Source: Scenedesmus sp. PABB004 (Eukaryota). Taken from it: a DNA stretch of 64,000 nucleotides. Numbering within the stretch: the first letter of the stretch is position 1; each line of letters opens with the position of its first letter. The position numbers and the translations under genes are program-made. The stretch lies in contig JABVCE010000028.1 of the NCBI GenBank assembly GCA_014905635.1, positions 310,001 through 374,000 of the forward strand, read 5' to 3'. The notes below the pieces were generated by a model, which did not search any database, had not been told where the DNA came from, and saw nothing but the letters and a program-made list of their open reading frames with translations. Of the stretch, positions 21,910 through 64,000 are shown piece by piece.

Positions 21910-23599
21910 TCACCGCTGCTGCTGCGACAGCCCCGCCAGCTGCGCGCGGCCGGCGTCGACCAGGCTGCCCGCGGGCGCGGCCTGGCGCGCGGCAGTGCTG
22001 GTCCCCGCCGCCCAGCGCCCGTAGTCCGTGGCCAGCAGCTGGAGAAAGCTGGGCAGCAGCGCCTGCATGACCAGGCGCGCCACCAGGCCCGCCGTGCTGC
22101 TCAGCAGCGGGCCGGGCACGATGCTCAGCGGGTGCGGCAGGCGCAGCGTCATCGCGAGCTTGACCTTGCACGCGAGCGTGCTGCCGCGCCGCCACGCGCG
22201 GCCCGGCGCCTCCGCCGACGCGGCGCCGGCGCCGGCGGCGGGTGCGCCCCCGTCGGCCGTGACGTCGGCGTCGAGGCCCGCGAGCGCCGCCGCCGCGGCC
22301 GCGCCGGCGTCCGCCGGGTCCAGCGCCGCCGCGAGCGGCACGGCCGGCGCCTTGACGCGGCTCGTGAGCGTGGCGAGCAGGTCGACCTTGAACTCCGCGT
22401 CGAACGTCGGGTCGCCCACGACCAGCCGGCTCGCGCGAAACTTGACCTGCGGGCGCGCCAGCGGCGGCGCGCGGGCGTCGGGCGCGGCCCCCGCGCGCGC
22501 CGGCCAGCGGCGGCCAGCGCGGCGGCGCGGCTGCCCCCGCGGGCCCAGCAGCGCGCACCTGCGAGTGCGCGCGGTCGATGTCGACGCTGATCACGAGCAG
22601 CGGCTCGAGGTCCACGCCCAGCAGCTCGCGCATCGGGATGCGCAGCAGAAAGGCGCCGTCGGGCCCGGCGTCGCCGGCGGCCGCTGCTGCTGGCTCGCTT
22701 TCCACCGCCTGCTGCTGCTCCTGCGCCTGCACCTGCGCCTGCACCTGCTGCTGCTCCTGTTGCTGCTCCGGCTCCTGCTCCGGCTGCTGCTGCTCCGGCT
22801 GCGGCTGCTCCTGCAGCTCCCGCATCCTGGGCTCCAGGCTGGTTCCGCCATCGCCGCCACCGCCGCTGCCTTCCCTCGCCTGTTGCTGCTGCTGCTGCTG
22901 CTGCCGGCGCGCTGCCGCCGCTGCCTGTGCGGCCGCCTTGCGCGCCGCCTGCGCCGCGAGCAGCTCCGCAAGCGTGGCTTCGATGTCCGCGCCCGGCGGC
23001 AGGCGCGTGATCAGCGTTGGGTCCAGCACGGTGTACTGCTCGAGCGGGAGCGCCAGGTACGCGGGCAGCGAGCGCGCCAGCGCCTCGGCGGGCAGCGCCT
23101 CGGCGGCCTTGCCGTGGTGGTGGCGCTTCCCGTGCCGCGCGTGCTGCTTGGCGCCCGCATGGTCGCCGCCGTGCGGCGCCCCGTCGCCGTGCGGCGCGCC
23201 GTCGCCGTCGCCGCCGCCGGCGTGCAGCACCTCGGCGACGTCGACGCTGCTGGACGCCTTGGCGCTGAAGCTGATGAGCTTGCTCGGCCCGGCGCCGACC
23301 GGCAGTGCGCCCGCCTGCGCCGCGCCGCCGCCGCTCGCGCCGGGGCGGCGCCGGCCGGCGGCGCCGAGGATCTTGTTGATGGCCCCCAGAGCGACCTCCA
23401 GCGCCGCGACGCCGGCGCGGTCGGGCTGCGCCCGCAGCGGCGCGATCGCACGGCGTGCCGCAGCAGGCCAGCCGCCGGGCGGCCGCCAGCGGCGCGCCGC
23501 CGCCGGCGGCGGCTGGGCGCACGCGCCGCCGCGCCTGGCCGACGCGCTGCTGCCACGCTGCGGGCCGAGCCCGGCCCTGTGCCTGGCCGCGGGCAGCAT
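21910..23599 (-). CDS. DUF1997-family protein, probably plastid-targeted; 2 exons
   Basis: YLALPLEQYTVLDP, FLLRIP..LLGVDLEP, LRLPHPLSIVPGPLL, MQALLPSFLQLLATDYGRWA. Intron 22447-22558. Gln-rich insertion. Confidence 0.75.
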
Positions 23600-23951: not shown

Positions 23952-25739
<1,788 letters not shown>

Positions 25740-30731: not shown

Positions 30732-32433
30732 GCGCGGCGCGCCTGACCGCGCCCGCCCGCCGGCGTCTCAGGCGGCTTGCTCTGGGACTGCCTGCTGCTC
30801 AGTGCGCCGTCGCGGGCGCCCTCCGCGCCGTTCAACGCGGCTTTGACTCCGGCTGCTGCCGGCCCCGTCGCGGCGCGCGCGCCGGGCTGGCGCCTGCCCG
30901 GGGCTACGCGGGCGCCTCGTACGGGCCGTGGCGGCGCGTGGGACGCGTTTTGGACCATCTAGCAGAAGATCAGATATCGGCCCTGCCGCTTCAAGTCGCG
31001 GCGCTCCCCCGCTACTTAGCCGCCCGCACGCCCGGCGCCCGGTGTCTGAAGCTGATCCCAGCCCTCCACCCAGCTTCTCTCCACCACACAAGCCCCACTC
31101 AACCACCATGGCGTTCGCCGTCAAGAGCCTGGCCGGCAAGGCCGCCGTGGCCCGCCCCGTGCGCGGCGCCAAGGTGCGAGGGCGCGCTCCCTGCGCCGCT
31201 GCCGACGCGTCGCGCCGCGCCGCGAGGCCGCGCGCGCCCGGGCAGGCCCCAGCGCGGCCCGCGCATGCCGCGCTCACCCCGCCCGCCCCGCGCCCCGCCG
31301 CGCCCCGCCAGGTGTCCACCGTGGTGCCCCGCGCCGCCATCGAGTGGTACGGCCCCGACCGCCCGAAGTTCCTCGGTGAGGCACGCCTGGCGCGCCCCGG
31401 AGCCGCGTGGGGCGCGCGCGCCCGCGCGTGTGCGCGATCCGCGGCGCGGCGCGCCCGATCTGGTCGGGATCTTGTGTCGCAGCGCTCCTCGCGCGGCCGC
31501 AGCGCGCCGCGCTCGCCCGGTCGACTGGTGCGCACAGGTCTGATCGCCGGGCTGTCCCGCCCCGCCCTCCCCTGCGCAGGCCCCTTCTCCGAGGGCGACA
31601 CCCCCGCCTACCTGACGGGCGAGTTCCCCGGTGACTACGGCTGGGACACCGCCGGCCTGTCCGCCGACCCCCAGACCTTCGCCAAGTACAGGGAGATCGA
31701 GGTCATCCACGCCCGCTGGGCCATGCTCGGCGCCCTGGGCTGCGTGACCCCCGAGCTCCTGGCCAAGAACGGCGTGCCGTTCGGTGAGGCCGTGTGGTTC
31801 AAGGCCGGCGCCCAGATCTTCCAGGACGGCGGCCTCAACTACCTGGGCAACGAGAACCTCGTGCACGCCCAGAGCATCCTCGCCACCCTGGCCATCCAGG
31901 TGCGGAGCGCGCTGCGGCGCCGCCAGCAGCGCGCGCGCGCTGGCCAGCAGCCGGCAGCCAGCAGAGGCACGGCGGCGCGCGCGCGCGGCAGCAGCCAGCG
32001 CAGCGCGCGCGCGGCGCTCGCTGCTGTTCAGTCCTGACCGAGCCGCCGCTGACGCGCGCGCTGCCCCTGCCGCCGCCCTGCCACGCAGGTGCTGCTGATG
32101 GGCGCGGCCGAGAGCTACCGCGCCAACGGCGGTGCCCCCGGCGGCTTCGGCGAGGACCTGGACAGCCTCTACCCCGGCGGCGCGTTCGACCCCCTCGGCC
32201 TGGCTGACGACCCCGACACCCTGGCCGAGCTCAAGGTGAAGGAGATCAAGAACGGCCGCCTCGCCATGTTCAGCATGTTCGGCTTCTTCGTGCAGGCGAT
32301 TGTCACCGGCCAGGGCCCCATCGCCAACCTGGACGCCCACCTGGCGGACCCCTCCGGCAGCAACGCCTGGAACTACGCCACCAAGTTCGTGCCCGGCAAC
32401 TAAGCGCCCGGCCGACGACGCTGCTGCTGCTGC
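29762..32433 (+). repeat. 2.67-kb inverted repeat, right arm (partner 16931-19603)
   Basis: Starts in the last PETM intron and ends 30 nt after the LHCBM stop, in a (GCT)n run. Confidence 0.95.
31108..32403 (+). CDS. LHCBM: Major light-harvesting chlorophyll a/b-binding protein, copy C; 4 exons
   Basis: Same as copy A apart from a few substitutions (LAIQ versus LAVQ). Confidence 0.97.
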
Positions 32434-32997: not shown

Positions 32998-35900
32998 ATG
33001 ACCAGCACTGCGCTGGCCTCGCTGCGGGCGGATGCCGGTGAGCGGGCGCGACGACGGCTGCGGCGACGGCGCGGCGCGGCAGCAGCGGCGGCGCTCGCTG
33101 AGCGCGGCACCGCGCCGCAGTGAGCGACTGGGAGGCCTGCGGCGACAGCTTCTACTGCCAAGAGCACCTCTACGACCTGCACTGGCAGGATGTCGACCTG
33201 GAGGTGCAGCGGTGAGCGGCAGCGGCCTGCCTGCGCGCCCGCTCGCGGGGGGGCCCGCCGCGGCGGCGTCGACAGCCCCCGCCGCCGCGCGGCCGGCGCG
33301 CTGCGCGTGCTGCTGCCAAACACTGCGCCGCGCCGCGCCGCAGCGTCGCGGCCGCGCCGTTTGGCGGGCCGCTGGCGGTCATGCGGGACGAGTCGGCGCT
33401 GGTCGTTGTGCCGCGCGGCGCGCCCGCGGGCGGCCGGCCGGTCGTGCGCATCTTCAGCGCGGCCGGCGCGCTGCTAGGGTCTTTCCTGTGGGAGGGCGCG
33501 CGGCTCGCGGGCTGGGGCTGGAGCGCAGAGCTCGAGCTCGTGATGGTCGACGCCGCCGGCAAGGTGGGGCCGCGCCGCGCCGGCGGCGCCGCCCGCGCCC
33601 GCCCGCCCACGCGCGCGCGCTGCTCGCGCGGCCGAGCGGCCGCGGCGCCTCTGAGTGGCCGCGGCGCGCGCCGCGCGGTGCCGGCAGGTCTACTTCTACT
33701 CCTTGCACGGCGAGTGCCTGGCCAAGCAGGTGGGCCCGGCACGCCGCACGGCACGCCTCGCGCGGCGGCGGCCCGCCGCCGCCGCAGCGGCGCGCGCCCC
33801 CGCCCGACCCGACCCGCCGCGCGGCGCGCCGCCGCCGCGCGCAGGTGAGCTTTGGGCCAGAGGTCGAGGCGGAGGGCGTGTCGCACGTCGCGCTGTACCC
33901 GGACGGCCTGGTGGTGCTCGGCGCGGCGAGCGGGCAGCTCTGGGCGGTCGTGGGCCTGGCGGCGCCGCGCGCGGCGCGCCTGCCGCGCGTGCCGGGCCTG
34001 GACGAGGCTGCCGCCGGCGGCGGCGGCGCCGACGGCGCCGGCGGCGGCGTGTGCCTTGGCATTCTGGAGCCGCGCTTCACCCTCAGCGGCGGCCTGGAGG
34101 TGCGGCGCCGGCGGCGGCGGCGGCAGGGGCGGCGCAGGGCGCCGCGGCGCGCTGGCTGGCGGCGATCTCCGCCCGTGGACGCCCGCCCGCGCCCGCGCCG
34201 CCGCGGCAGGTGCTGGTCGCGTGCGGGGAGACGGTGTGGACGGTCGACGACCACCGCGCGACCGACTCGCCGCTGCCGCCCGGCTGCGGCGGCGTGGCGG
34301 GGCTCGCGGTCGCGCCGAGCGGCACGTTTGTCGCGCTCGCCTGCGGCGACGGCCGGCTGCGTGTCATGTCGAGCGGTGCAGCCCCGCGCGCCGCGCGCTG
34401 CGCGCCGCGCCGCGGGCGGGCGGGCCGGGCCCGGCCGCGGCGGCGCGGGCCGCCGACGCTGCCCGCAGCACATGCCGGCGGCGCCCCGCTCCCCGCCCCA
34501 CCATGCCCTGCCGCTGCCCCGTCCCCTCCCTCCCCCCTGCCCTCCCCCCTCTCAGACTTCAGCCAGCAGCTTTGTGAGTTCGACACCAACAGCGTCGCGC
34601 CGACGTCGCTCGCGTGGTGCGGCGTGGACGCGGTGGCGCTCGCGTGGGCGGGCCTGCTGCTGCTCGTCGGGCCGACGGGCGAGTGGCAGCGCCTGCCCTG
34701 CGCGCCGGGCTGCGTGCTGGTCAGCGAGGTCGACGGCCTGCGCATGGTGGACGCCGGCGCTATGAGCCTGCTGCGGCGCGTGCCGGACCCGCTGGTGCAG
34801 GTGCGCCCGCGCCCCGCGTGCCGGCGTACGGGTCCCGCAGCGGCGGCGGCGCCGCCGGCCGCTGCCGGCCCAGCGCCGGGGCGGCGTGCCCGCCGCATTG
34901 ACCAGCCGGCCGCGCGCGGCTGACGCGCTGCTGCGCGCCGCGGCGCGCGCCCCCGCTCCCCCCGCGGCGCAGGCGTACCCGCCGGGCAGCACCGCGCCGC
35001 CCGCGCAGCTGCTGGACGCCCGGGACCTGTTCGACTCTGGCAGCGCCCGCGCCGACCGGCTGCTGCGCCAGCTCGGGCCGGCGCTGCCGCAGGCGGTCGA
35101 GGCGTGCGCGGCGGGCGCAGGCCTGGAGCTGGTGGTGCCGCGGCAGCGCGCGCTGCTGCGCGCGGCGGTGTTTGGCCGCGCATTCGCGCCGAGCGTGCCG
35201 CCGGGTGCGAGCGCCGCGCCGTGCGCGCCGCGCTGCCGCCGCGCCGCCGTGTCCGCCCGTCTCACCGCCGCCGCGCCGCCGCACCGCCGCCGCCAGGCCT
35301 GCTGCGCGAGACCGCGTTGAAGCTGCGCGTGCTCAACGCGCTGCGCGAGCCCAAGGTCGGCGCGGCGCCGGCGCGCGGCGGCGCGCGTGGGCAGGCGAAC
35401 CGCCGCCGGCTCTGCGCACACGGCCTCACCCCCCCCCCCCCCCCATTTCGCCTGGTGCTGCCCACCAGGTCGGCCTGCCCCTGACCATGCCCCAGCTAGA
35501 GGCGCTCACGCTGCCGGTCGTGGTGGGCCGGCTCGTGGCGCTGCGGCAGCACCTGCTCGCGTACCGCATCGCCGAGGCGCTCGGCACGGGGCAGCAGGAG
35601 GTGCTGCTCGCGTGGGCGTGCGCCAAGATCAGCGCCAGCCCCACCCTGCAGGACGGACCGCTCAAGGAGGCGGTCGCCGCCAAGATGGGGCGCCTCCCGC
35701 GGCCGCGCTACGCGCCGCTCGCCGCGCACGCGCAGGCGCGGCGCGCCGCCGCCGCCGCACGCTGCGCCCCCGGCCGCGCGCGCCTGCGGGGGCGCTCACG
35801 CCTGCGCCCGCGCGCGCGCGCCGCCGCCGTCGCCACCACGACCGCCTCCGCCGCCGCGGCGCAGGCGCTCGGCCGGCGCTCGCTCGCGATCAAGCTGCTG

Positions 35901-37312
35901 GAGGAGGAGCCCTCCCCTGCGGCGCAGGTCCCGCTGCTGCTCTCGCTCGCCAGGACGGGCGCCGGCGGTGGCGGCGGCGGCCACGGCGCGCCGCCGCCGC
36001 TGGGCGGCGACCCGGCCGACGACACGCTCGGCGCCGCGCTGCGCAAGGCGGTCGAGAGCGGTGACCCTGACCTGGTGCACCTCGCGCTGTTCGAGGCGTA
36101 CCGCGCGCGCCCGCTGCCAGAGTTTTGGGCCCTCGTCTCGCCGCGCGCGCCGGCGCGCAACCTCTTCGCCAAGTTCACGCGCCTCAAGGTCCGCCGGGGG
36201 CCCGATCCCTAACCCCTGCCCGGCCCCTGCCGGCCTGCTGCTTTGTGCGCCGCGCCGCGCAGCGCCCGCGCCGCGCCGCGCCGGTCGCCGCGCCCAACCC
36301 GCCGCCGCGCCCGTGCGGCCTCGTGGCCGCGCGCCTCGCAGGACCCTGAGCTGCTGGAGACGCTATACGTCACGCAGCACCTCAACGCGGAGGCCGGTGA
36401 GCTCGCGCTCGAGGGCGCGCTCCGCCAGCTCGTGCCGAGCGGCGGCGGCGCGCCCGGCGGCGCGGGCCGGCCGGACGACGCCGCCGTGGCGGCCTGCATC
36501 TCCGGCTTGCAGGCGGCGGGGCACAAGTTTGGGCAGGTGTGGCCAGGCGCCGCGGCGGCCGCGGCGGCTGCGCCGTGTGCATCGCCGCGCGCAGTGCGCG
36601 CCGCCGCGCATCTCACACGCGTCGGCGCGCCGCGCGCAGTGCAAGGAGCTCGCCTGGCAGGCCAAGGCCGCCGCCGAGGCGGCTGCGCTGCTCAAGGAGC
36701 AGGTACGGCTCGAGCGCGACACGGGGCAGGCGCTCTTTGTGGGCCTCCCGCTCGCCGACACGGTCGGCCTGTGCCTGCGCCTCGGGCACGCGCGCGCGGC
36801 CGCGGGGCTGCGCAAGTCGTTTGGCGTGCCCGAGCCGCGCTGGTACTGGATCAAGCTCCGCGCGCTCGCCGCGGCGCACGACTGGGACGCGCTGGACGCG
36901 TGGCTGGGAGAGAAGCGCAGCCCCATCGGCTGGGAGCCCTTCGTGCGCGAGGCGACCGCGGCGGGCGCGCCGCGCGAGGCGCTCGCGCGGTGCGCGGCCG
37001 TGCGGGGCTGCGCCGGCGGCGGCGCGCGTGGCCCGCGCGCCCCGCACCCCTCGCCCGCCCGCGCGCGCCGCGCTCGCGCCCGCGCAAGGCGCAGATCGGC
37101 CCCGCCGCGCCCGCAGGCTCATCTCGCGCGCGCCCGACTGCCGGGCCAAGGCCGACGCGTTCGAGGCGGCGGGCTGCCCGCGCGAGGCGGCCGAGGTCGC
37201 GGCCAAGCTGCGCGACGGCGACCTGCTCGCGCGCATCGGCGGCGCGGTCGCGCCCAACTCGGCCGCAGGGCTCGCGATCGCGCAGCTGCGCGAGGCGTTC
37301 CAGGCGCGCTGA
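32998..37312 (+). CDS. VPS16: Vacuolar protein sorting 16 (HOPS/CORVET core subunit, VCL1-like); many exons
   Basis: DW...FY...LYDLHW, VAAAPFGGPLAVMRD, VRIFSAAG, LAWCGVDAV, LVSEVDGLRM, QRALLRAAVFGRAF, LRVLNALR, VGLPLT, AWACAKI, QVPLLL, KAVESGDPDLV, RSPIGWEPFV. Confidence 0.93.
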
Positions 37313-48045: not shown

Positions 48046-49321
48046 CAGTGATTCCCAGGTCGGCATAGAGTTGCAGAACGAGCTCGTTTACGAAGCGGAT
48101 GCCACCTTTTACACGTCCGACGACTTCACCATGTACTACTTCAAGGTCCTCAGGTGCGGGGCGCCGCGGCCCTGCGCCGGCGGCACCGGCGCCGCGGCAG
48201 CCGGCCGCCGCGCCGCTGCTCGCTCGCTCGTCCGCCGACGCGTCGTTGCCCGCTGTTGCGCCCGCGCCCGCAGATGCCCCGAGGTCAGCTCGCGTTCCCT
48301 CGGCGTCCCGCGCGGCCTGCACCCGCTGGCGCCCCGGCCGCCCGCCGAGCGCCGCGGCCGCCGCCGCCCGCCGAGCGCCGCCGCCGCCGCCGCCCGCAGA
48401 AGTGCCCGCACGTGTGGCAGGAGTGCCCCTTCACGCACCACAGCGAGCGTGCGCGGCGCCGCGACCTGCGGCTGTTCACGTACACGCCAGACATGTGCCC
48501 CGACGCGCGCAGCGGCCGCACGTGCCCGCGCGGCGACGCCTGCAGCAGCAGCCACAACACGTTTGAGAGCTGGCTGCACCCCAACCAGTGAGCCGCACGC
48601 GCAGTCACCCCCTTCCCCCCCCCCCCCCCCCACCCCTCGCCTCGCGCGCGGTGTGGCCGCGCGCCGGCTGCCGACCGCCGCGCCGACCGCGCGCCAGGTA
48701 CCGGACCCAGCTGTGCGCCGCGGGCTCGACCTGCGCGCGCCGCATGTGTTTCTTCGCGCACTCGCAGTCCCAGCTGCGCGCGCCCAACCGCGACGCCGAC
48801 CACGCCGCCGCGGCGCGCTCGGCGGCGGTGGTCGCGGGCTCCATCCCCTGCACGAGCAAGCCGGGCGTGTCGGTCGTGGGCGCGCCCTGGCTCAAGGCGC
48901 AGCGCGAGCAGCTGCTCGAGCAGGCGCGGCAGCAGCAGCTCTCGGCGGGAGGCCCGCCGCCGGCGCTGCTGCCGGGCGGCCAGCCGGGGCAGCACGTGCC
49001 CCCGGGCGTGGCGGACCTGGTCACCGCCACGCACATGCTCGCCCTGGGCGCCCGCGGCCCCGCCCCGCCCAGGGTCGGGCGCACCACGTCGGCCGTGCTG
49101 CCGCCGGGCGTGCCGCTCGCTGGCGGCGCGCGCCCCGCGCCGGCGGCGAGCGCCGCGTCGGGCGACCCGCCAGGCCTGGTGCCCGGCCCCCTGCGCACGA
49201 ACAGCGCGCCGGCCGCTGCGTTTGCGCAGCACCGCCAGCCCCACTCCCAGGCGCAGTACGGCGCGCCGCAGCTGCTGGTCGCCCCGCAGCAGCACCTGCA
49301 CTACCCACAGGAGCAGTTTGC

Positions 49322-51040: not shown

Positions 51041-54000
51041 ATGCCCCCAGATGAGGAGCGCGCGCGGTGCGTGTGTTTGTGATGAGCGGGGCCACCTCGC
51101 TGCCCGCACACGCTGCGTCCGCCGCCGGGGCGGGCGCCGCCACGCTCGCCGCCGCGCCCGCAGTGCGCCCGCCGCAGGCGGCCTCCGCGCTGCCGGGGAC
51201 CTGCCCGACCCTGTGGCGGGTCGCGGTGGAGGAGCGGATGAGCCCGGTGGAGCGCAGCTCCCCGCCGCGCCGCCGCTTGGCGCCGCCAGCGAGGTGCTGA
51301 GCGGCCGCAGCAGCAGCTCCGGCCTCAGCCTGCACCTCCCGGCCTCGCTGCTGGCGGCCTGGGCGCCGGCGGCGAACAGGGCCGCTCCAGCCAGGGCGGC
51401 CAGCCCTGACCGCCAGGCGCCGCGACGGCTGACGCTGGAGGAGCGCCTCCTGCTGGCGACGGAGCTGCTCAGCGGCGGGGGCGACCTGGATGCCGCGCCG
51501 CCACAGCCCAGCGGCGCGCGCGCGGCGGAGGCGACGGCGGCCGAACGCAGCGCTGAGCTCAGCGCTGCGCTCGAGCGGGCTCCGTCGCCGACTGGCTCGC
51601 CGTTCCGCCCAGGCTGGTTTGATGGCGACGCGTTTGCCCAGCTGAGGCTGCGCTCACAGCCCAGCCTCGCGGGCGGTTGCAGCCCCGACGACCGCCGCAG
51701 CTCGCGCGAGGCGGGCGGCGGCGACGCGGCGGAGGGCCGGCTGCTGCACGACCGCAGCACGCAGGACTCACTGCCGGACGACCCGGACGCGCCGGAGTCC
51801 ACGAGGGGCGACGACGCGTCGCTCGCGGAGCAGCTGAGGGCGGCCGAGGTGAGGCGCGCCCAACACGCTGGCGGGCCGCCGCGCGCCGTGCACGGCGCCA
51901 CGTGGCCGCGCTCGACCGCCCGCGCGCGGCTCACTGGCGCTGCCGCGCTGCGCCGCGTGTGCGTCAGGAGCTGCTGCGCAAGCACGGGCTGCTGGACGCG
52001 TTCCGAGCGCGCGTGTGCGCGGCGCAGGCGACCGACGCAGCGCTTGCGCCCGCGCCCGACGCGGCGCCCAGCTTTGGCGGCTTTCCCGCCCAGCCGCAGC
52101 GCGGCGACAGCCAGCCGAGCGCGCCCGCGCCGCTGCTGGGCTGGCTTGTCCCGCGCCGCACGCCGCGGGGCGGCGCGGCGCCGGCGCGCCCGCGCCCGAC
52201 GCCGGACGCCGCGGCGGCGCCGGTGCGCGGCCCGCGCCCGCTCGTCACGCGCTGGTCTCCGGCCGCTTGCGTGCTGGCGATTGCGTACCTCGCTTCCACG
52301 GCGTACTACTTTTACGTCCGCGTCGCCACCAGCGCCGGCCTGGGCCCGCAGCGCTGGCGCGTGCACGCGCAAGAGGCGCCGCGCGGCGCGCGGTGACAGC
52401 GCACGCGCGCTTGCGCGCGCGCCGGCGCGCGCCGACCGCCGCCGCCACCGCCTCCGCCGCCGGGGCGCAGGTATGGGCTCACCGTGCTGGCCGTGGAGGC
52501 CCTCGGCGTCAGCAGCATGCTGCCGTGCGTGGCGCCGCGGGCCGGGCCGCGGGCCGGGGTGGGCGCAGGCCCATGCCACCGAGGTCCGCGCGCCGCCTGC
52601 CGTGCGCGCCACGCTCCCGCGCCGCCCCTGCCGCCGCGTCGTCCGCCGCCGCCGGCGCGGGTGCCGCAGGTACGCCCTGATGCTGCTGCGCTACACTGCG
52701 GTCAACCCCCAGCGCAGCGAGTGAGACCAGCCTGCGCCGGGCCACGCGCGCGCGCCGCGCGGGCCGGGGCGCGCCCGGGCGCCCCGCCCGAGCTGCAACC
52801 GCCGCCGCCACAGGGCGCCGGCCGGGCCTCAGGCGCTGGAGGCCAAGCCGTTCCACGTGCGCGTGCTCGTCCCATGCTACAAGGCGCGGCCGCCGCCGCA
52901 GCCGCCGGCCTGCCGCCCGCGCGCCTGTGCGACGCGCGCGCGGCTGCTCTCGTCGCCCCTCCCGCCTCCCCTTCCCGCCGACCCTCCTTTGTTTCCTTTA
53001 CCTCCTGTCACCGCCGCCAGGAGGGGCTGGCCATCATCATCGCCACGGTGCGCGCGGCGCTGGACGCGGAGCTGCCGCCGGGCTGCGCCCGCACCGTGTA
53101 CCTCTGCGATGACGGCGCCGCCGAGGACAAGCGCGCCTGGGCGGCGGGCGTGCCGGGCGTCGTGTGAGGCCGCCAGATGCCGCCGCCGCCGCGCGGCGCT
53201 GCGCGCCGTGCTGCGGCGCGCGTGCTGCGCGCGCGCCTCGCGCCCGCGTGCCCCGCGCGCCTCGCGCCTCGCGCGCCTCTCATTCTCCGCCCGCCCGCCC
53301 GGCGCGGCGGCGCAGCTACGTCTCTGGCCGCCCCCGGCGCGCCGGGGAGGTCAACGGCAAGAGCGCAAACCTAAACCACTGCCTCACCAGCGTCATCTAC
53401 CCAGGCGCCGGCGCCGGAGGCCCGCCGAGCGGCCCGGACGGCATCCCGCCCAGCGAGCTCGTGGCCGTGTTTGACGCCGACATGGCGGCGCGGCCCAGTT
53501 CTTCAACCGGGTGCGTGCGCAGCGCCCGCGGCGCGGGGCGCGGGGCCAGGCCGAGGCGCGGCTGCGCCGCGCAGCACGGCGCGCACCCCCACTGCACGGC
53601 GCGCACACCCACCGCCGCCGCGTCTGTGCACCAGGTGCTCGAGGTGATGCGGGACGACGACGTGGCGCTCTGCCTCACGCCCCAGGCGCGCGCACCACTG
53701 GTTTGGCGCGGCCACGCTCCCCCGCCGCCCGCGCGGCTTGAGCTTGCCAAGCCGCGCCCGCCGTGCCGCGCGCCGTCGCTTGCCTTGCTCGCAGTCGTTC
53801 CACAACGTAGACCACAGCAGCGACATCTTCAACCACGCCAACCCGCAGGTGACTGACGGCTGGCTGGCCTTGTGGCTCGCCGGCGCAGCAGCCGTTGCGC
53901 CGGCGACGGCCTCGGTCGTCAGACGCCCGACGCCCCGCCGCCCCGTCCGGGCCCGCCGCCGCGCGCAGTTCTGGGAGCTGGTGCTGCCCGGGCTCGACGC

Positions 54001-57000
54001 GCTCGGATACGTCGCGTGCACGGGCACGAACGTTGTCCTCCGCGCGCGCGCGCTCGCGGCGGTGCGGGCACGCTCCGCCGCCCGCGCAGGCAAGCACACA
54101 GCACGCACCCGCCGGCTTGTCAGTCCCGCACGCCGCCGCCTGCACTGCGCCGCAGGTCGGCTGGTTCCCGACCTGGACCATCACCGAGGTCGGTCGCGCA
54201 GTGCAGCTAGCTGCCCCGGCAGCGCAGCCGCGCCGCGCGCACGCCGCGCCCAACCCCGCCGCCGGCCTCCCGCCCGCCCCCCCCCCCCATCCTCCCTGCT
54301 CCCTTCACACCACCCTCGCTGCCGCCAGGACTACGCGCTGTCGATGCTGCTCAAGGCTCACGGCTTCAAGGGGCGCTACCTGCCTGAGTACCTCGCGGTG
54401 AGCAGAGACCACACTGATGATGTCATTCCGCGGCAGAGCTCAGCGCCGAGGCCCTCGCGGGGCAAGCGGCCGCCCCGCCGCCACCTCCGCGCGCGCCGCG
54501 CCGCCCCGCCGCCGCGCCGCGCCGCCGCGCCGCGCCCGTGCAGGTCGGCGAGGCGCCCGAGGAGGCGCGCGCGGTGATGCGGCAGCGGTCGCGCTGGTGC
54601 AAGGGCCACATGGAGGCCTTCTTTTCGCGCGCCCACTGCCCGCTGCTGCTGCGCGGGCTGGGCCCGCTGCAGCGCGTGCTCTACTTGAACGGCACGTGGG
54701 CCTATTTTTCGACGATCGCAACCAGCGTCACGTTCACGCTTGTGCCCTGCGTCTCGCTTGTCTTGGGCTGGTGCGCGCGCCAAGCACCCTCAACCCACGC
54801 CGCCGCGGCCGCCACGCAGGCGGCGCACGAACGCGGCTGGCGCAGCGCGCGCGGCGGGCCCGGGCGCGCGCGCCTGATGCCGCCCAGGACGCGCACCGCC
54901 CCGCCGCCCCGGACGCCGACGCCGCCGCCGCAGGCACCCGGTGGCGTTCAGCCGGCGCTTCGCGGCCGCGAGCAGCGCCTACCTGGTCTGCGGCGCCGCG
55001 CTCGGCGGCTGGGTGCGCCACCCGCGGCAGAGCCGGGGCATCTGGCTCAGCGGTGTGAGCAACCAGCTCCTGGCCTTCACTTACGCCAAGGCCGTGGTCA
55101 ACGTGCTCCTGTGAGCGGCGCGCCGAGGGCGGCTGGCGGCACACCGCGGCGCGGCGCGGCGCGGCGCGCGGCTCACGGGCGACGCGCCGCGCGCCGCAGC
55201 GCCAAGGCGGGCCTGAAGGCGCGGTCGGGGTTCAAGGCGACCGTCAAGAAGCAGCTCGTGCCGCTCGTGGCGGTCGTCGCGCGTGTCGCCGCGCTCAGCG
55301 CCGCCGCCGGCCGCGCGCTCAGCGCGGCCTGGGCGGGCGCGCGGCCGCCGCGGGCGGCGCCGCGGCGCGCGCGCGGAGCAGCCTCGCGCACCGGCTGTCG
55401 GTGGCCAGCGGGTGCGTGTGGCGGGGCGCGGCTGGCGCGCGTGCGCGGCGGCGGCGCAGCCGCAGCCGGGGCTCATGGCCTAACCGCCACCGCGCGCTCG
55501 CAGGCCGCCCGGCGACGGCGCGCCCAGCCTGGCGCCCAGCGCGGCGCCCGGCGCGGCGCCGGGCGGCAGCAGCCAGCCAGGTGGCGGCGTGGCCCCGCCG
55601 CCGCACCCCGGCGCATGCCGCTCCAGCGGGTGGCCAGGCCTCTTCAGCCCGCGGGCCTCCGCGCTCGCGCCCGGCCGGCCGGACCGGCAGCAGCAGGCGC
55701 CGCTGGGTGCCCAAGCCGGCCGGCAGGCCTCGCCGCAGGGCGAGGCGGGTGGCGGCGTGCGCGGCTCTCGCGCGTCGGCGGGCGCGGCGCCGGCGGCTGG
55801 CCGGCCGCACCATCACTCATCGCTGGCAGGCCACCTGGCGCCGCTGCAGGAGGGCTCAGTGAGCGGCGCGGCGAGTGGCGCCGCCGTCGCGGCGGCGGCG
55901 GTGACGGCCGTGTGCCGCCGCCCGGGGCCGCGCCGGCACCGCGTGCTGGCCGGCGCGGCTGTGCGTGGGCTGCCGCGCAGTGGGCCGCGCTCGACGGCTC
56001 CCTCGACCCCCTCGCCATCGGCCTCGGCCTCGCCATCAGCCTGTGCGCGATCGCGGCGGGCGTGCAGCAGGCGGTCGCCAAGGGCGCCTCGTTCAGCCTC
56101 GCCAGTGCCAGCAGCGTCGCCAAGGCGCGCCCGCACGGCGGCGCGGCGCACGCGCCGTGCGCCCCTCCGCGTCGGCGCGCGCGCCCGCCTGAGCCGCGCC
56201 CCGCTGCTTGCCGTCGCCCTTGTCATGACCTGATCGATCAGGTCTTTTCTACTGGCCGAATGGATGCCTTCATGCTCCTCGCCATGCTCTGGGTGGGCGT
56301 CAACGCCATCCCGCCGAGTGCGCGCGGGGGGCGCGGGGCAGCGCGCTGCCGCGCGCGCCGGCGCCTGCGGGAGGCGCGCTGCCGCGGTGGCACGTGCGCG
56401 CCGCGCGCGACGCCCCCGCCCCCGCCCTCCCGCCCCCGTCCGAGGCAGCCCTGTTCCTCATCAGCTTCTTCAGCAAGGGCCGGCCGCTGCGCTGGGCGGT
56501 CGCGGCCGGGCAGGCGCTCGCCCTGGTGCTCGCGGCAGGTGGGCCGCGCGGGCGCGCCGCACCTGTCTGCACCGCCGCCGGCTGCGCGCTGCGCCGGCGC
56601 GTGGATGCCGCGCACCAACCTGCCGCGCCCGCAGCCGCCATCGGCGCGCTGTGGATGCTCATTCCCGCGGAGCTGGACGGCGCCGCGCTGCGCGGCATGC
56701 TGGGCAGCGCGCTGGCCTTTGTCGACGCCATGCGCAGCGGCCCGGACGCTCTGCCGTCGGCAGCGGCCGCGGCCTTCCCCTGGCTGCGCGTTGGCACCGG
56801 CGGCGGGGACGCCGTGCTGGGCGGATTTTTCGTTGATGCCACGTACGTCAAGCACGGCCCGCCAATGGCCACCGCGCTCTCGCTGCTCGCGTGGAGCGTC
56901 GCGTCCTTCCCGGCCGGCTTCCGGGAGGCGGGCGTGCACGCGCAGGCCCTGGACGCGCTCGTGCACGGCGCGAAGCACCTCATCGCTGCCCACATCACGC

Positions 57001-59086
57001 CCGGCGCGTTCGTCGTCCAGGCGCGCGCGCGCGCGCCGGCCGCGCCCGCGCGCACGCGCTCACCGGCCGCACAGCGTGCCGCCGCCGGCGCGCTCTGGCC
57101 CAGCCCGGCGGCCCCCAACGGGAACCCGGGGCGCAGGTGGGCAACCCTGCCGACTATGCGATTGACTCCGCCACCGGCACCGGCAGCTGGGGCGAGCCGG
57201 ACTCGATGCCGACTGACCGGTGCGCCCACCGCCACGAAGCGCCAGGCTGCACCGGCGCCGCGACCCGGCACGCGGGCTGAGCGCCGGCGCGCGCCGCCCG
57301 CCGCGTGCCGCGTGCGGCAGGGCGGCGCGCGAGGTCACCAACTCGAGCTCCGGCGGCGCCGACGCGCTCGGCGCGGCGCGGCCGCGCGCTCGCGGCCGCC
57401 GCGCACGTGCTGCGCGCCGAGCGCGGCGCGCTGGCCGAGGCCGCGCTCTCGCACGCGCGGCAGCTCTACGCGCTGGCCCTCGCCCCGCAGCTGCAGGGCA
57501 GCTTCTGCGGCGCGGTCGCGCCCTGCGCCGGCACAACACTGCCGCAGGCCGACCCTCGCGGCGGCGCCGCCGCCGCCGCGGGCGCGGGGCGGGGGCGCCG
57601 GCGCCAACGCCCGTGCCCTGGGTTGCGCACCCCAGCGACTCCTGGTTCGACGACCTCGCCTGGGCGGCCGCGTGGCTCCACGTTGCAACAGGTCAGATAA
57701 GGCGCCTCGCGCACCGCTGCAGCCGCACGCGCTCCGCCGCCTGCCGGCGCGCCCACCACGCCGCGCACGGCCGCCGGCCGCCGGCCGCCGCGCCTCCGCA
57801 GGCTCGGCGTCGTACCTGGGCGACGCGGAGAACCACTGGCGCCAGCACCTGGCCCGCGAGGCGTCGCTCGGCGAGGCGGCGGGGTGGTGGCTGCCGCGCG
57901 CGGACAACATCGGACCCGCCGCGGGTGTGCGGGCGGCGCCGTTTGGGGGCGACACCGCCCTGCCGGGCAGCAGATGCCAGGGGTCATCCAGAAAGCCTGC
58001 CCCCCTCCTCCGCCCCGCCCGCAGGTGTGCTGCTCATGCAGCTCCTGCCGGACGCGCCGCGCCACCGCGAGCTGCCGGACGCGATGCTGCGCGGCTGGAT
58101 GACCGGCCGGGTGAGCGCGCGGGCGGGCCGCGCCGCGCCGCGCCGCGCGGCCGGCCGCCGGCGCGCAGCGTGCGTGCGTGCGAGCCGCGCCCCCACCTCC
58201 GCCGCCGCCAACCCCCGCCGCCGCCGCCGCGCCCGCAGAACAACTGGACCGCCGGCATCACGCGCCCGACGCCGCGCGGCTTCCTGTGGACGCCGTCGGG
58301 CGCGCCCGCGCACACGGTGGCCGCCGCGGGCATGCTGGCCATGCAGTGGGCGGCGGCGGCGCCCAGCGAGCGCGGCGGGCTGCGGTGGCGCGCCGTGCAC
58401 GGAGCGTGCAGTGCTTCGCGATGCGGCAGGTGCGGCGGGCGGCCAGGCGGGCGGCCCCCAGCGGCCAGTGAGCGCGCACGGCTGCGGAGACCGTGCGACG
58501 TGCGGCGCGCGACGGCATGTCGGCGCCGCCCGCCTCGCAGCTGGCCTCCCTGGTGGGCGGCGCCATGGGCGACGGCAGCAGCTTCATGGTTGGCCACGGC
58601 CCCTCGCCACCTCGGCGCCCGCACCACCGCCAGGCCAGCTGCCCCGCGGACGGCAGCGCGTGCACTGTCACGAGCGCGCTGCTGACCAGTCTGCCCAACC
58701 CGCACCAGCTCACAGGCAAGTCCACCGCCCACCCAGGAGGCCTCTCAGCAGCCGCGGCGCCGGCAGCTGAGGGCCCGCACGCCCCCGCCGCGCGCAGGCG
58801 CGCTGGTCGCCGGCCCTGCTGCGGACGATGGCTTCGCCGATGAGCGCGCCAACACCGAGCAGTCCGGCATCAGCCTCGTCGGCAACGCCTGGCTCGTCGG
58901 ACTCCTGGCCGGCCTGCTCGATCGCGGCATCACGGCGGCGCGGTGCCAGGGCGGCCAGGGTGCGGGCGCCGGCGGCACAGCGCCTCCGCCGGCGCGCGCT
59001 GGCTGGCCCCGACCTCGAGCCGAGCCCCGCCGCCGCCCTGCGCAGGGCTGCTGCAGAGCGTGATGAGCTCGAGCTTTGCGCCCTGA
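51041..59086 (+). CDS. Processive GT2 beta-glucan (cellulose synthase-like) synthase fused to a C-terminal degenerate GH9 domain; about 25 exons
   Basis: GT2: VPCYK|E, YLCDDG, NGKSANLN, FDAD, LTPQ|SF, CTGTN, ITE|D, QRSRW, FKATVK. GH9: ALAFVDAMRSG, GGFF...VKHGPPMA, VVQ|VG, WGEPDSM, DDLAWAAAWL, TPRG, SFMVGHG, PHHR, NPHQLT|GALVAGP. Stop at 59084-59086. About 4 apparent indel slips. Confidence 0.8.
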
Positions 59087-59227: not shown

Positions 59228-62200
59228 TCACAGCCGCAGGCGGAAGCCGAACCGCGCCAGCAGGTGCGCCTGCACGCCCGCAGCGAGCGCGGCCGCGGAG
59301 GCGGCGAAGCGCGGGCGCGCCGCGCCCGCGGCCGCGGACGCGCGCAGCAGGCGCTGCACGGCCCCCAGGTCCGCATCCGCGCGCGCCGCCGCCCACTGCG
59401 CCAGATACTCAGCAAGCACAGCCAGCTTGCGCGCGGCGCCGCCGGCGTCGTCGCAGCCGCCACCGGCCTCGTCGCCGCCGCCCACGGGCGCGAGCGCGTC
59501 CAGCGCCGCGCTCAGCGCCGCCAGGACGTTGGCGAGCGGCTCGTCGGCAAAGAGGGTCTGCTGCGCAGCGAGGCGGCCGCCAGGCACCGCCGCGCGGGCC
59601 TGCTGCTCCGTCCGCCCGCGCGCCCCCGCCGCGCCGCCTGGGCCCGCCGCCGCCGCGGCCAGCCCGCCGCTCGCCGGCGCGGCGCTCGGCGGCAGCCGCC
59701 GCGGCTTGCCGACCAGCGCGGCGCGCAGCTCGCGCTGCAGCTCCGCCGGCAGCTCAGCGAGCACGGCGGGATCGACCTGGTGGAGGTGGGTCAGCACCTC
59801 CGGGCGCTGGGGCAGCCTGTGCACGCGCGCCGGCAGCGAGCGGGCAGGGAGCGGGCAGCGGGCGCCGCCCGACGTGAGCGCGCTGCGCACGCGCAGGTCG
59901 GGGCGCGTGCGCATGCCGCGGCCGCCGCCGCCGCGGCCCAGCCCGGTCAGCCCCACTCACCGCGTGCTCGGCGCACCCTGCCGGCCTCGCTTGTCGCCCA
60001 CGAGCGCCAGGCTGGTGCCGTAGCTGCTAAACTGCCGCTGCTGCTGCGCCTTGCCGGCAGGCCGCCGGCCGGCGCCCACCGCGGCTGCAGGCCTGCCCCT
60101 GATGCCGCCGCCGTGCTGCACTGGCGGCTGCCGCTGCTGCGGCCGCCGGCTGCCGCGGTCGCCGCCCGGTGAGGCGTTGGCGCGGCCGGCGCCCGCTGCA
60201 CCAGCTGCGCCCGCCGGGCGCTGCTGCTGCTGCTGCTGCTGCTGGTGGTACTCAGCCTCCAACTCCTTCCGGACCGATGGCGGCAGCTCCGCCAGCACGT
60301 CCGGGTCGAGCTGCGACAGCGGCGGCAGCGCCGCGACGGGCGCGGCGGCGCCGGCAGCCCGCCAGCATCGAAGAGAGCCCGCTTGGCGGGCGGGCTGCCT
60401 CCGGCCGCGGCGCCCGCCAGCGCGGGGTCGGTCTCTGGCGGCGAGGCGTCCAGCAGGTCCGCCAGCATGAGCACGTCTGCCTGCGAGGGCGACTGCCGCG
60501 GCGAGGCAGCGCCGGCGGGGCTGCTGGCGCCGGCCGGGCTGCCGCCGGCCGCCGCGAGGTGCGCGGGCAGCGCCGCCCGCGCCTGCTCCTCCAGCTGCTG
60601 CTGCCGGGCCGCCAGCAGGCCCTCCAGCGTGCGCTGGTCGCCCACAGCGGCGGGGCTGGCGCCGGCGGCCCGGCGGCGCTTGGCAGGCGTGCCGGCCTCG
60701 CCGCCCGCCGCGGCCTCGCCCGAGCTGGCGGGGCGCTTGCCCAGCTGCCGCTGCTCGTCGCCGCCCTCGGCATTATTCTCGCCGGCCGCCTGCTCGACGG
60801 TCCCTGCGCCCTGCTGCTCCTGCTGCTGCTTATTTGACTCCTGCTGCCCCACCAGCCAGCCCGACTGCTTCTGCAGCGCCGTCAGCCACGCGGGCTGGCG
60901 GTCGGGGTTGAACACGCCGTGCTTGGCGGGCGCCACCTGGCGCGGCGGCGGCACATGAGGGCGTGCTCGTGTGCCGCTGCGCTGTGCGGAGGCGCCGCCA
61001 GTGCAGGGGCCCCCGCGCCGCACCTTGGCTGGCGCCGGACCGGAGGGGCGCGCCGAGAGCGAGGCGGCGTCGGAGTCGAGCTTCGACACCTGCGGCGGCC
61101 GGCCACGGCGTGTCGGGCGGGCCTCAGCGCCCGCGCTCACTCGGCCTGCCGCCCGGCTCGCTGCCGAGGGCCGCCGCGCCATGCTGGGCAGGGCCGGGCC
61201 GGGCCGGCAGCAACGCCCAAGGCGCACCGTGATGCCGACGCCGCGGATCTCCGGCGCCGGGATGCGCATGGCAGCGAGCAGCCCCGCCGCCTGGTCGTAC
61301 AGCTCGCCTGCGCGCGGAGCAACAGCAGCGGCGCGGCGGTGAGGCAGGGAAGCCCCGCGCGCGCGCGCCGCTGGGGCGGCAGCGCGGGCAGCGCGCCGCG
61401 CAGCGCGCGCGCCGCCGCACCCGCGCCGGCGACGAACCGCCCGAGCGTGACGCTGCGGCTGAGGTTGTCGCACACGCCGTGCCCCAGGAACTTGGCGGGC
61501 TCCGGCGCGCCCGCCTGGCGGCGCTTGATCTTGAGCGTGATGCACCGCCCCCGCACGCCGCCGCCGGCGAGGCGCGCCGCGACCTCGCCGCACAGCTCCT
61601 GCGCGCGGGCGCGGGCGCGCGGGGCGGGGCGGGGCGGGGCGCGCCGCGGGCTGGGCGGCCGCGCGCGTGTGCGCCGGCACGGGCCCCGGGCGGGAGGCCT
61701 CCTCGAGAGGGGGCTGCTTGGCGGCGGGCGGGCCGCACAGCCGCGCCGCCGCCGCGGCGCGCGTGCCTTGAGAAAGGCCTGTGCGTCGGCGTCTGCCGCG
61801 AAGCGCACGCCCCAGTTGACCTCCGCGCCGACGCTGCGCCGCGCGCGCGGCGGCTCGACGCGCCGCTCGTCCAGCCCGTGCGCGTGCGCCCACAGCGACG
61901 CGCCCGTCTGCGCGCCCAGGCGGCGCATCAGCACCTCCTTGCTGCTGCTCCACACCTGCGCGCCGCGCGCGGGCGGGCGCGGCGGCGCGGCGCGTCGCGG
62001 CGCGCCCGCGTGCTGGCCGGCGGCCCGACCGCGCCTGCCTGGCCTTGGCCCGCCGGCCTGCGCGCCTGCCAGCTCCCTGCCGCCGCGGTGGCGGGCGCAC
62101 CTGGCGCACGTGCGTGATGCCGAGCTCAGCGAGCTTGCCCTTGAGACTGTAGCCGACGCCAGGCAGCTCCCCGACCTCCAGGTCGCCCAGCACCTGGCGC

Positions 62201-64000
62201 GGCGGCGCAGCGCGCGCGGGAGGCTCGCCCGCGCCCGGAGCACGCAGGGGGCCGCGCCAGTGCGGCGGCGGGGAGGCGGCGCGCACCTGGCGCGCCTCCC
62301 CGCCCGCGGCGATCAAGGCCTGGCCGTTGGGCTTGGCCGCCTTGGTGGCGAGGCGGGCGAGGAGCATGTTGGGGCCGATGCCTGCGCCGCGGGCGGCCGG
62401 CGGCCGGCGCGCTGGCCCCCATCCGTCGGCGGCGGCGCTGCTAGCTCGGGGGGGGGGGGGGGACGCCGCGCACCCGCGCTGGCGGTGCACTGCGTGGCGG
62501 CGCGGATCTCCTCCCGGATGGCCGCGACGTACGCGTGCGGGTCCTGCGCGGCACCGGCGCGGCGCGGCACAGGGTGGGGCGTGCTCCGCGACTGCGAGCG
62601 CAGCCCGCGCCGCCGCTGCCAGAGCGCGGCGCGGCGCGGCACGGGGCGCGGGGTTCAGGCAGGCCGCAGGCGCCGCGCCTGGGTGAGGCCTGTGATGTCC
62701 AGGAACGCCTCGTCGCAGGAGAGGGGCGCGACCAGCGGCGTGGCGCGCAGCAGGATGCGGTACACCTGTGTGTGTGTGTGGGGGGGGGGGCGGCAGCAGT
62801 GAGCACGAGTTGTTGACCGGCGGCGCCGCGGGCGCGGCCAGCACGCACAGCGGTTCAAGCGCCCTACAACCCCCGTGCGCGCGCGGAGGCCCCACCTGCT
62901 CGGAGACCTCCTCGTACTTTTCGAATTCGTACGGCACCACGAGCAGCCCCGGGCACGCGGCCTTGGCGGCGGCCATGAACATGCCCGCCCGGATGCCGCA
63001 GCGCCGCGCCTCGTAGTTGGCGCTCGACACCTCGCCGCTGCCCGCCGCCGACGCGGAGTGGCACACCGCGAGCGGCTTGCCTGCGCGCGGCGGCGAGGAG
63101 GGGAGGGGGCGGGTGCGGGGCGTGGAAGCGACGCGGCTCAGCGCAGGCGCGGCGTGGCGCAGCGACGAGGGCTGGCGCCGCGCGGCGCGGCGGGCGGCGG
63201 GGGCCGCCGCGCACCCGCAAACTCGGGGCGCCCCACCGCCGCCACGGCGGCAAAGAAGCAGTCCATGTCGATGTGGACCACCACACGCTCGCCGCCGGCG
63301 CCGCGCGGGCCCGCCGCCGCCGCGGGGCGCCGCTGCGCCTGCGCGCGCTGCGCCTGCGCGTGCTGCGCGTGCTGCTGCTGCTGCGGCGCCTCTGCCATGA
63401 GCGCCTCGATGCGCGCCTTCCAGCTGCCGATGAAGTGCAGCCGCGACGACCTGCGCGGCGGCCGCAGCACGGCGCGCGCGCGCGCGCGTCGAGGGCGCAG
63501 GGCGAGCAGGCGGGCCCGGGGCGGGGAGGAGGAGGAGGCAACTGCGCTCGCGCCAGCGCCGGCGGCGGCGGGCGCGGCGGGCGGTCGCCGAGGCGCCCCG
63601 CCCCGCCCCGCCTCACCTGAAGAAGCTGCCCATGAAGCCCTGGGGGTCGTCCGCGGTGGAGCGCGGCGGGCCCTTGAGCAGGTCACACGCCGCGCGCAGC
63701 CCCGCCGCGGTCGCGCGCGCCGCCTGCAGGGACGCCTGCTCCGGCTGCGGCGGCGGCGCCTGCTGCGCCGCCTGCTGCGGCTGCGGCGGCGCCGCCTGCT
63801 GCGGCTGCAGCGGCGGCGCCTGCTGCGGCTGCGGCGCCGGCTGCTGCGGCTCCAGCTCAGCCTCCCCCGCCGACTGCTCCTGCAGCCCCTGCCCCCGCTG
63901 CTCGCGCTCTGGCTGCTGCCCCTGCTGCCCCTGCTGCTGCTCCTGCTGCTGCTGCCCCTGCTGCTGCTGCGCCTGCTGCTGCCGCTGCCCGAGCGCGGGG
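59228..64000 (-). CDS. REV1: Y-family translesion deoxycytidyl transferase REV1; 5' end lies outside the window
   Basis: SRLHFIGSWK, VVHIDMDCFF, EVSSANYEARRCGIRAGM, SCDEAFLD, GIGPNMLLARLAT, LPGVG, RSVGAEVNWGVRF, KFLGHGVCD; two UBM-like DPxVLAELP motifs. Confidence 0.95.

Follow-up and report, generated by a model that had tools for sequence, protein, structure and literature searches.

A chlorophyte GT2–GH9 synthase fusion in Scenedesmus sp. PABB004: a family paralogue with a probably non-cutting GH9 domain and a frame broken as assembled

Can a single algal polypeptide unite a cellulose-synthase-like enzyme with its own endoglucanase? The question is raised by a locus in a 64,000-nucleotide (nt) stretch of the Scenedesmus sp. 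PABB004 assembly GCA_014905635.1 (contig JABVCE010000028.1, positions 310,001 to 374,000; the whole stretch is called the window below, and positions are counted from its first letter). The plus strand carries, in collinear arrangement between about 52232 and 59086, a processive GT2 core, seven predicted membrane helices, and a GH9-fold domain. We consider it quite likely that this locus is a paralogue of a known chlorophyte GT2–GH9 family, that its GH9 domain does not cut, and that its reading frame is broken as assembled.

The fusion was examined first through its relatives, and the evidence for one gene at the locus is comparative, i.e., it comes from collinearity with homologues. A word-based homologue search with exon 56634–57020 gave no match. 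A HMMER search with the same exon against 1.8 billion representatives returned 146 matches, among which P0093 (1429 residues), P0091, P0074, and P0117 (Bryopsis sp. KO-2023) have a GT2 domain preceding a GH9 domain according to Pfam. The first-pass annotation of this DNA had recommended looking for GT2+GH9 proteins in other chlorophytes. The search with P0093 yielded 72 matches, and 44 of these contain both PF13632/PF13641 and PF00759. About 20 of the 44 are NCBI-named proteins from Trebouxiophyceae and Chlorophyceae (Coccomyxa, Elliptochloris, Trebouxia, Apatococcus, Myrmecia, Chlorella, Micractinium, Raphidocelis, Monoraphidium, and Haematococcus, with Chlamydomonas sp. UWO241 and C. eustigma as further named carriers). 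Three EukProt entries (P0154, P0156, and P0182) have names styled as complete open reading frames (ORFs) from transcriptome contigs.

The tblastn alignment of the window with P0093 was collinear from FHVRVLVPCYK to the GH9 C-terminus, and collinearity was also obtained with P0155 (tblastn/blastp). Our protein model was 57% identical to P0182 over 341 residues of the GT2 part and 39% over 647 residues from transmembrane helix 5 (TM5) to the GH9 end, and P0004 spans TM6, TM7, and GH9 unbroken. The claim that the GT2 core, the helices, and the GH9 domain belong to one gene was thus upheld by contiguous homologous ORFs such as P0093 and P0182, which run from the GT2 core to the GH9 C-terminus. The exon shared by the last helix and the GH9 start (56635–57020) was also recovered: it follows a CAG acceptor and encodes AAIGALWMLIP and then the GH9 N-terminus directly. 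A FastTree phylogeny, with Shimodaira–Hasegawa-like (SH-like) support only, placed the window copy in a five-row Sphaeropleales clade (support 100) with M. minutum P0186, Tetradesmus, P0182, and P0188. P0188 is a second protein named from Scenedesmus sp. PABB004; the window copy stands apart from it and adjoins P0186.

The same region could be divided into two genes, namely a GT2 gene ending upstream of about 56240 and a KORRIGAN-like type II membrane-anchored GH9 gene starting from the ATG of MDAFMLL (about 56262). Such an ATG is present at the start of the TM6 exon, and the automatic annotations of relatives sometimes split there. This division is highly improbable. TM6, TM7, and GH9 are contiguous with the GT2 core in P0093, P0153, P0154, P0156, and P0182 (ORFs on short intron-free contigs or with transcript-style names), and the Met of MDAFMLL is not conserved in the homologues. 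In our model, the splice phases keep the boundaries at 56073, 56242, 56317, 56449, 56538, and 56635 in one frame. A synthase without TM5–7 would also miss helices found in the BcsA and CesA structural matches described below.

Among the relatives, the TM7/GH9 exon is the starting point of P0001 (517 residues) and P0006 (360 residues) and the end point of P0188 and P0189. Mis-split models come from Tetradesmus, Scenedesmus, and Monoraphidium, and one of them also merges a neighboring VHA-F domain. These splits show predictor inconsistency rather than two genes, and the fusion family seems to be systematically mis-split by gene predictors.

Taking the locus as a single gene, we turned to the GH9 domain, which had been described as a full GH9 barrel. 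The fold withstood scrutiny. Single-frame Pfam scans matched PF00759 at 56229–58685 (36.2 bits) and at 58686–59063 (26.8 bits; cut-off 27.7), and a PDB search matched solved GH9 chains at E 1.4e-7. The catalytic residues did not. In the alignment to the GH9 endoglucanase 3wc3_A, GGFFVDATYVKHG pairs with GGWYDAGDHVKFG, and the DAGD position is occupied by VDAT (56832–56843), with Val and Thr replacing the two Asp residues. Gly (codon 58866–58868) stands at the catalytic Glu of Cel9M (1ia6_A), a position that is also the Glu column of the family. We take the Asp residues of DAGD and the Glu to be the base and the acid of GH9 enzymes (D55, D58, and E424 in T. fusca Cel9A). The family fold signature is retained without either DAGD Asp or the catalytic Glu; judged by these replacements, the domain is almost certainly not an endoglucanase.

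The loss extends over most of the family. Motifs were counted in a 59-row MAFFT alignment, using the 41 rows with all motif columns filled; partial models, four GH9-only reference proteins, and P0117 (gap at TED) were left out. TED and QxxRW were kept in 40 of the 41 rows. Only P0074, P0172, P0174, and P0177, a single clade in the tree, kept the GH9 triad (both Asp residues and the Glu). It was lost in the other 37, with substitutes that vary among clades (R, W, Q, V, T, S, A, I, and G).

These counts bear on the possibility that the domain is an active endo-β-1,4-glucanase that trims or releases the nascent chain in the manner of KORRIGAN or BcsZ, as the accessory role originally suggested for it would imply. 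In its favor, the domain has the GH9 fold signature and retains PHHRQAS and the F-A-D-E-R Asp, the minority clade has the full triad, and P0117 keeps DAGD and the Glu. Set against this, the window copy has Val and Thr for the Asp pair and Gly for the acid Glu when checked against solved GH9 enzymes, and the triad is missing with clade-specific substitutes from the 37 rows. We assign very little probability to an active enzyme here, and the accessory endoglucanase role is not supported, its catalytic residues being absent.

The opposite pattern was seen in P0117, which retains the GH9 DAGD and Glu and has lost the GT2 motifs TED and QxxRW. P0091 has degenerate versions of both GT2 motifs and carries Arg in place of the GH9 Glu. 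We propose a reverse case for Bryopsis-type and P0091-type members; in P0117, GH9 would stay active beside a degenerate GT2. This reverse degeneration suggests that the halves can specialize separately after duplication.

The synthase half of the window copy gave a complete set of catalytic motifs. All motifs named before (DDG, DAD, TED, QRSRW, and FKATVK) were found in the three-frame translation; CDDG, DAD, TED, and QRSRW were read both from the aligned family columns and by direct translation. The gating-loop motif FKATVK has Ala where FxVTxK has Val, and most family members show FK[TSA]T. The GT2 half has every catalytic motif, together with this variant of the gating motif. Pfam Cellulose_synt (PF03552) reached 18.7 bits on the QRSRW exon in a single-exon scan, below the cut-off of 24.7, and full-length homologues pass PF13632 and PF13641. 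From its sequence, the protein is most likely a BcsA/CesA-like processive β-glycan synthase, with β-1,4-glucan, i.e., cellulose, as its product.

Hydropathy analysis gave seven segments, in line with the roughly seven helices counted initially. They fall into groups of two, two, and three (model residues 55–73, 91–109, 414–432, 442–460, 521–539, 549–567, and 590–608), and the gating loop precedes the last three. With three helices after the gating loop, the GH9 domain and the cytosolic GT domain fall on opposite sides of the membrane. An AlphaFold2 model was obtained for the homologue P0165 (Coccomyxa elongata), which is 33% identical to the window model, with a 36-row alignment (mean predicted local distance difference test (pLDDT) score 84.7, predicted template modeling (pTM) score 0.79). 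In this model, helices 521–548, 553–578, and 583–610 run straight into the GH9 domain, which begins at 617. Foldseek matched the GH9 half of P0165 to animal and bacterial GH9 endoglucanases, with a target TM-score of 0.93 (3wc3). The GT2/TM half matched BcsA (4p00_A, E 9e-22; 9b8v_E, E 5e-22) and plant CesA (poplar and soybean); the comparison of a predicted structure with BcsA and CesA, proposed at the outset, pointed to both. The earlier placement of the GH9 domain outside the cell was borne out by the helix count and the model: the domain is most likely non-cytosolic, at the outer face of the membrane and within a few residues of the last helix.

The product was considered along with these structures. 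D,D,D,QxxRW cores with gating loops are also found in other processive GT2 synthases, and a polymer other than cellulose (mixed-linkage glucan, mannan, or a chitin-like glycan) could be bound by the GH9-like domain. The exon-level Cellulose_synt match lies under its cut-off, and a passage of the Zygnema genome preprint (PMC9915684) includes non-cellulose synthases among related eukaryotic clades. Such a product is nevertheless unlikely: the best structural matches of the P0165 GT2 half are BcsA and plant CesA, and known members of the family of the fused domain act on β-1,4-glucan. In Blanc et al. 2012 (PMC3446292), moreover, Coccomyxa walls are Calcofluor-stained and cellulase-sensitive.

For cellulose as the product, the following mechanism can be proposed. 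The GT2 core, with its motifs in place, would polymerize uridine diphosphate (UDP)-glucose and push the β-1,4-glucan through its own seven-helix channel. The GH9-fold head, tethered to TM7 by a few residues outside the membrane, would receive, bind, or guide the emerging glucan at the channel exit without cutting it. Such a non-hydrolytic head would resemble the inactive GH6 of tunicate CesA or the periplasmic domains of BcsB. We give an even chance to the broader proposal that, across core Chlorophyta, the fused GH9 is a conserved pseudo-enzyme with barrel and cleft kept and hydrolysis lost, acting as an extracellular receiver or guide of the nascent glucan, as a eukaryotic single-chain counterpart of BcsB that is convergent with the dead GH6 of tunicates.

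The combination of kept synthase motifs and a lost triad changes how these proteins, which often bear the name 'cellulase' or 'six-hairpin glycosidase', should be read: the family members probably synthesize wall polymers and have a head that binds glucan without cutting it. If true, they would offer a compact single-chain system for studying the handling of nascent cellulose after the channel exit, and a second independent fusion of a dead hydrolase with a synthase beside that of the tunicates.

The architecture has been described before. In a passage of Blanc et al. 2012 (Genome Biol 13:R39, PMC3446292), a GH9 fused to a tunicate-like cellulose synthase domain is reported in Coccomyxa subellipsoidea C-169, and such domains are also mentioned in Chlorella variabilis and Emiliania huxleyi. 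The algal GT2 is described there as highly similar to the tunicate domain and not orthologous to land-plant CesA. The passage speaks of a 'cellulase domain' and makes no mention of lost catalytic residues. Together with the 44 of 72 matches, this report makes the architecture a known one. The statement that it is not known as a characterized system held good: neither a biochemical study of an algal GT2–GH9 fusion nor a statement of an inactive GH9 was found in the literature, subscription journals being outside coverage. The window gene is a further member, possibly broken, of a known but biochemically uncharacterized family. The locus itself adds little, being one more paralogue of a fusion that has been on record since 2012 and that dozens of chlorophyte proteins share.

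The window copy shares with the Coccomyxa-type fusions the GT2 core, the membrane helices, and the C-terminal GH9, collinear over more than 1,000 residues. It has the same GT2 motifs and the same loss of GH9 catalytic residues as the chlorophyte family, but it is divergent (at most 57% GT2 identity to any match) and needs four frameshift corrections. Tunicate CesA is similarly one polypeptide with GT2 and a C-terminal hydrolase-fold domain with a substituted catalytic residue; a passage of PMC7464555 describes its fused GH6 domain as being without the catalytic Asp. The hydrolase fold is GH6 and not GH9, and therefore the tunicate and algal fusions are independent. The tunicate gene is also thought to derive from a bacterial GT2+GH6 gene pair, which is a further difference. 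Genetic evidence for cellulose synthesis exists for tunicate CesA.

Plant CesA and KORRIGAN offer a parallel in the processive GT2 with seven helices, paired with a GH9 at the outer face. KORRIGAN, however, is a protein of its own, N-terminally anchored and catalytically competent, and plant CesA has a zinc-finger N-terminus and plant-specific inserts that are absent from the window protein. The D,D,D,QxxRW motifs of the window protein match those of the BcsA–BcsB–BcsZ system, its putative gating loop resembles FxVTxK, and BcsA is the closest solved GT2/TM fold. BcsA–BcsB also has an extracytoplasmic carbohydrate-handling partner at the channel exit. The window protein is without a PilZ domain and without cyclic di-GMP (c-di-GMP) control, and its outer partner is fused instead of being a separate BcsB. 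BcsZ is a soluble, active GH8 enzyme.

The state of the gene depends on its exons. The G+C content of the window is 79%, and that of the locus is 75–84% in 500-nt segments. At such composition, all six frames of the window are open over hundreds of codons; open frames are uninformative here because the high G+C keeps all six open. The exon model was built from the DNA by coordinates. It contains 26 exons (3,409 nt in total) from 52100 to the stop codon at 59084–59086, and 25 introns, 24 of which measure 82–168 nt. The acceptor is AG in all 25, and the donors comprise 20 GT and five GC. The model junction from 55257 to 55981 is a placeholder for the linker. The contrast between exons (74% GC) and introns (84% GC) is sharply retained. 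The features are as follows.

52232..52356, plus strand: first homology-supported exon, with TM helix 1 (LAIAYLASTAYYFYVRV) and a GC donor (GCGCGT); tblastn of P0186 and P0117, and the model
52471..52883, plus strand: three exons (52471–52524, 52670–52720, and 52814–52883) with TM helix 2 and the start of the GT domain (FHVRVLVPCYK); homologue alignment and the model
53021..53163, plus strand: exon with the first Asp motif (YLCDDG); translation and homologue alignment
53316..53510, plus strand: exon with NGKSANLN, FDADM (DAD motif), and frameshift 1; gap-free alignment to P0182 and P0093
53635..54397, plus strand: five exons of the GT core (53635–53685, 53795–53848, 53969–54061, 54156–54188, and 54329–54397), with an intron interrupting the TED motif between TITE and DYALSM; homologue alignment and the model
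54544..54770, plus strand: exon with GEAPEE...QRSRW (QxxRW motif) and TM helix 3; Pfam PF03552 (18.7 bits) and hydropathy
54934..55110, plus strand: exon with TM helix 4 and the interface helix preceding the gating loop; homologue alignment and hydropathy
55200..55257, plus strand: start of the gating-loop exon (GLKARSGFKATVKK), which probably continues in frame 1 at its 3' side; sequence reading
55258..55980, plus strand: putative cytosolic linker, with frame 1 open throughout; splice-pair enumeration and linker comparison
55981..56538, plus strand: exons 55981–56073 (TM5, DPLAIGLGLAISLCAIAAGV), 56242–56317 (TM6, MDAFMLLAMLWVGVNAIPP), and 56449–56538 (first half of TM7); P0004 alignment and hydropathy
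56635..57020, plus strand: exon with the end of TM7 (AAIGALWMLIP) and the GH9 N-terminus, donor GC (GCGCGC); Pfam PF00759 (36.2 bits) and alignment to 3wc3_A
57137..57691, plus strand: GH9 exons 57137–57219 and 57321–57691, with frameshifts 2 and 3; homologue alignment and the model
57802..58429, plus strand: GH9 exons 57802–57924, 58025–58110, and 58239–58429, with frameshift 4; homologue alignment and the model
58541..59086, plus strand: last GH9 exons 58541–58715 (retaining PHHRQAS, with a GCAAGT donor), 58798–58959, and 59046–59086 (LLQSVMSSSFAP); Pfam PF00759 (26.8 bits) and alignment to 1ia6_A

In the linker, frame 1 from about 55876 (GGGGDGRVPPP...RRGCAWAAAQW) is similar to the linker end of P0182, P0188, and P0189. 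The end of the gene assigned in the first pass (59086) coincides with the stop codon. The start assigned at 51041 was not confirmed; homology begins only at about 52232. Upstream of TM1, a coding-like frame-0 stretch rich in Ser, Asp, Glu, and Leu was observed at 51255–51870 on the plus strand. It showed no detectable homology to the N-termini of relatives, and may be the disordered N-terminus of the GT2–GH9 gene.

Four frame changes are needed to follow the homologues; the first falls in the GT2 part and the other three in the GH9 part. Frameshift 1 is located in the CCC run 53494–53496, between FDADMAARP and QFFNR (frame 1 to frame 0); an alternative GTGCGC donor at 53515, 4 nt downstream, keeps frame 1 open with six residues altered. 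Frameshift 2 lies at about 57379 (frame 1 to frame 2), between GGADALGAA and GRALAAAAHV. Frameshift 3 falls within 57530–57618 (frame 2 to frame 1), with G4/G5 runs at 57587–57595, between APCAG... and ...PWVAHPSDSWFDD. Frameshift 4 lies at the GGG run 58377–58379 (frame 0 to frame 2), preceding VQCFAMRQ. At sites 1, 2, and 4, P0182 aligns with few or no gaps. Sites 2 and 3 cancel each other, yet about 70 residues between them are scrambled, and site 4 leads to a stop near 58683. With these four changes, the copy cannot be translated end to end as assembled, and the description of the gene as intact does not apply to the assembled sequence.

Splicing was rejected as the cause of frameshifts 2–4, which lie inside exons without intron space; no AG occurs between 57548 and 57633. 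No frameshifts were found in neighboring coding sequence, namely three LHCII genes (1,938 nt) and Vps16 (about 2.7 kilobases (kb)). GC content and homopolymer load were not supported as causes. Vps16 is at least as GC-rich, and the LHCII genes are richer in homopolymers (16.5 runs of at least 4 per kb vs. 6.2 in the GT2–GH9 locus). The frameshifts are specific to the GT2–GH9 gene relative to about 4.6 kb of neighboring coding sequence.

Several points weigh against our reading of the locus as a family paralogue with a non-cutting head and a broken frame. The loss of hydrolysis is deduced from the residues alone, and the identity of the product (cellulose or another β-glycan) from family resemblance. 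The position of the GH9 cleft over the channel exit is presumed, and the predicted structure is that of a homologue, not of the window protein. Splice-pair enumeration gave no unique exon solution for the linker 55258–55980, many of the enumerated pairs being in-frame, and tblastn with the first 430 residues of P0186 matched TM1 only. The frameshifts are deduced from homologues at 33–57% identity, and three of the four sites lie in short G or C runs with one base missing, like sequencing errors. The corrected protein keeps 119 of the 126 columns conserved at 90% or more in the family, which is within the range of other members. It shows no excess loss of conserved residues, as would be expected of either an intact gene or a very recent pseudogene.

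The last points would also be expected if the gene were intact and functional, with four indels as assembly errors and a full-length GT2–GH9 protein made. The corrected frame has no in-frame stop, all 25 introns have usable splice sites, and the GC contents of exons and introns are still sharply separate. The neighboring coding sequence is frameshift-free, though it is as GC-rich or richer in homopolymer runs. If indels were evenly spread, the chance of all four falling in the GT2–GH9 gene would be (3.4/8.0)^4, about 0.03 by our own arithmetic. The branch of the window copy is also long (0.71 vs. 0.14–0.39 for three of its four clade-mates; that of P0186 is 0.69). In view of both sides, a functional gene making the full-length protein is a tentative reading that we rate below even. 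An intact gene with local assembly errors comes somewhat closer to an even chance, and a recently inactivated or decaying paralogue has slightly better than an even chance.

The use of GC donors was unusually frequent at the locus. The GT2–GH9 model contains five among its 25 introns (52357, 52884, 53686, 57021, and 58716), mostly GCGCG[CGT]. In the Vps16 gene, GC follows about five of the 12 exon ends of the mapped protein P0224 (exons 33000–37310). By these Vps16 exon ends, GC donors appear to be normal in the source genome.

Other genes were recognized in the window. Three LHCII (chlorophyll a/b-binding) genes lie at 16964–17790 (minus strand), 20186–21003 (minus), and 31576–32400 (plus). 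Their proteins are identical over the aligned parts, and each gene has two coding blocks and one intron, with no frame break. The Vps16/VACUOLELESS1 gene (32998–37309, plus) is collinear with Tetradesmus P0225, and one of its exons is 100% identical to the NCBI protein VCL1 [Scenedesmus sp. PABB004] (P0224). The downstream neighbor of the GT2–GH9 gene (59950–63612, minus) encodes an impB/mucB/samB domain (Y-family DNA polymerase, REV1-like). At 9481–16067 (plus), coding blocks for leucine-rich repeats come after a papain-family cysteine protease domain, and an amino-acid kinase gene (24326–25540, plus) consists of three exon blocks with intron-sized gaps. A DUF1997 gene was found at 21913–22590 (minus) and a CCCH zinc-finger gene at 48052–48588 (plus).

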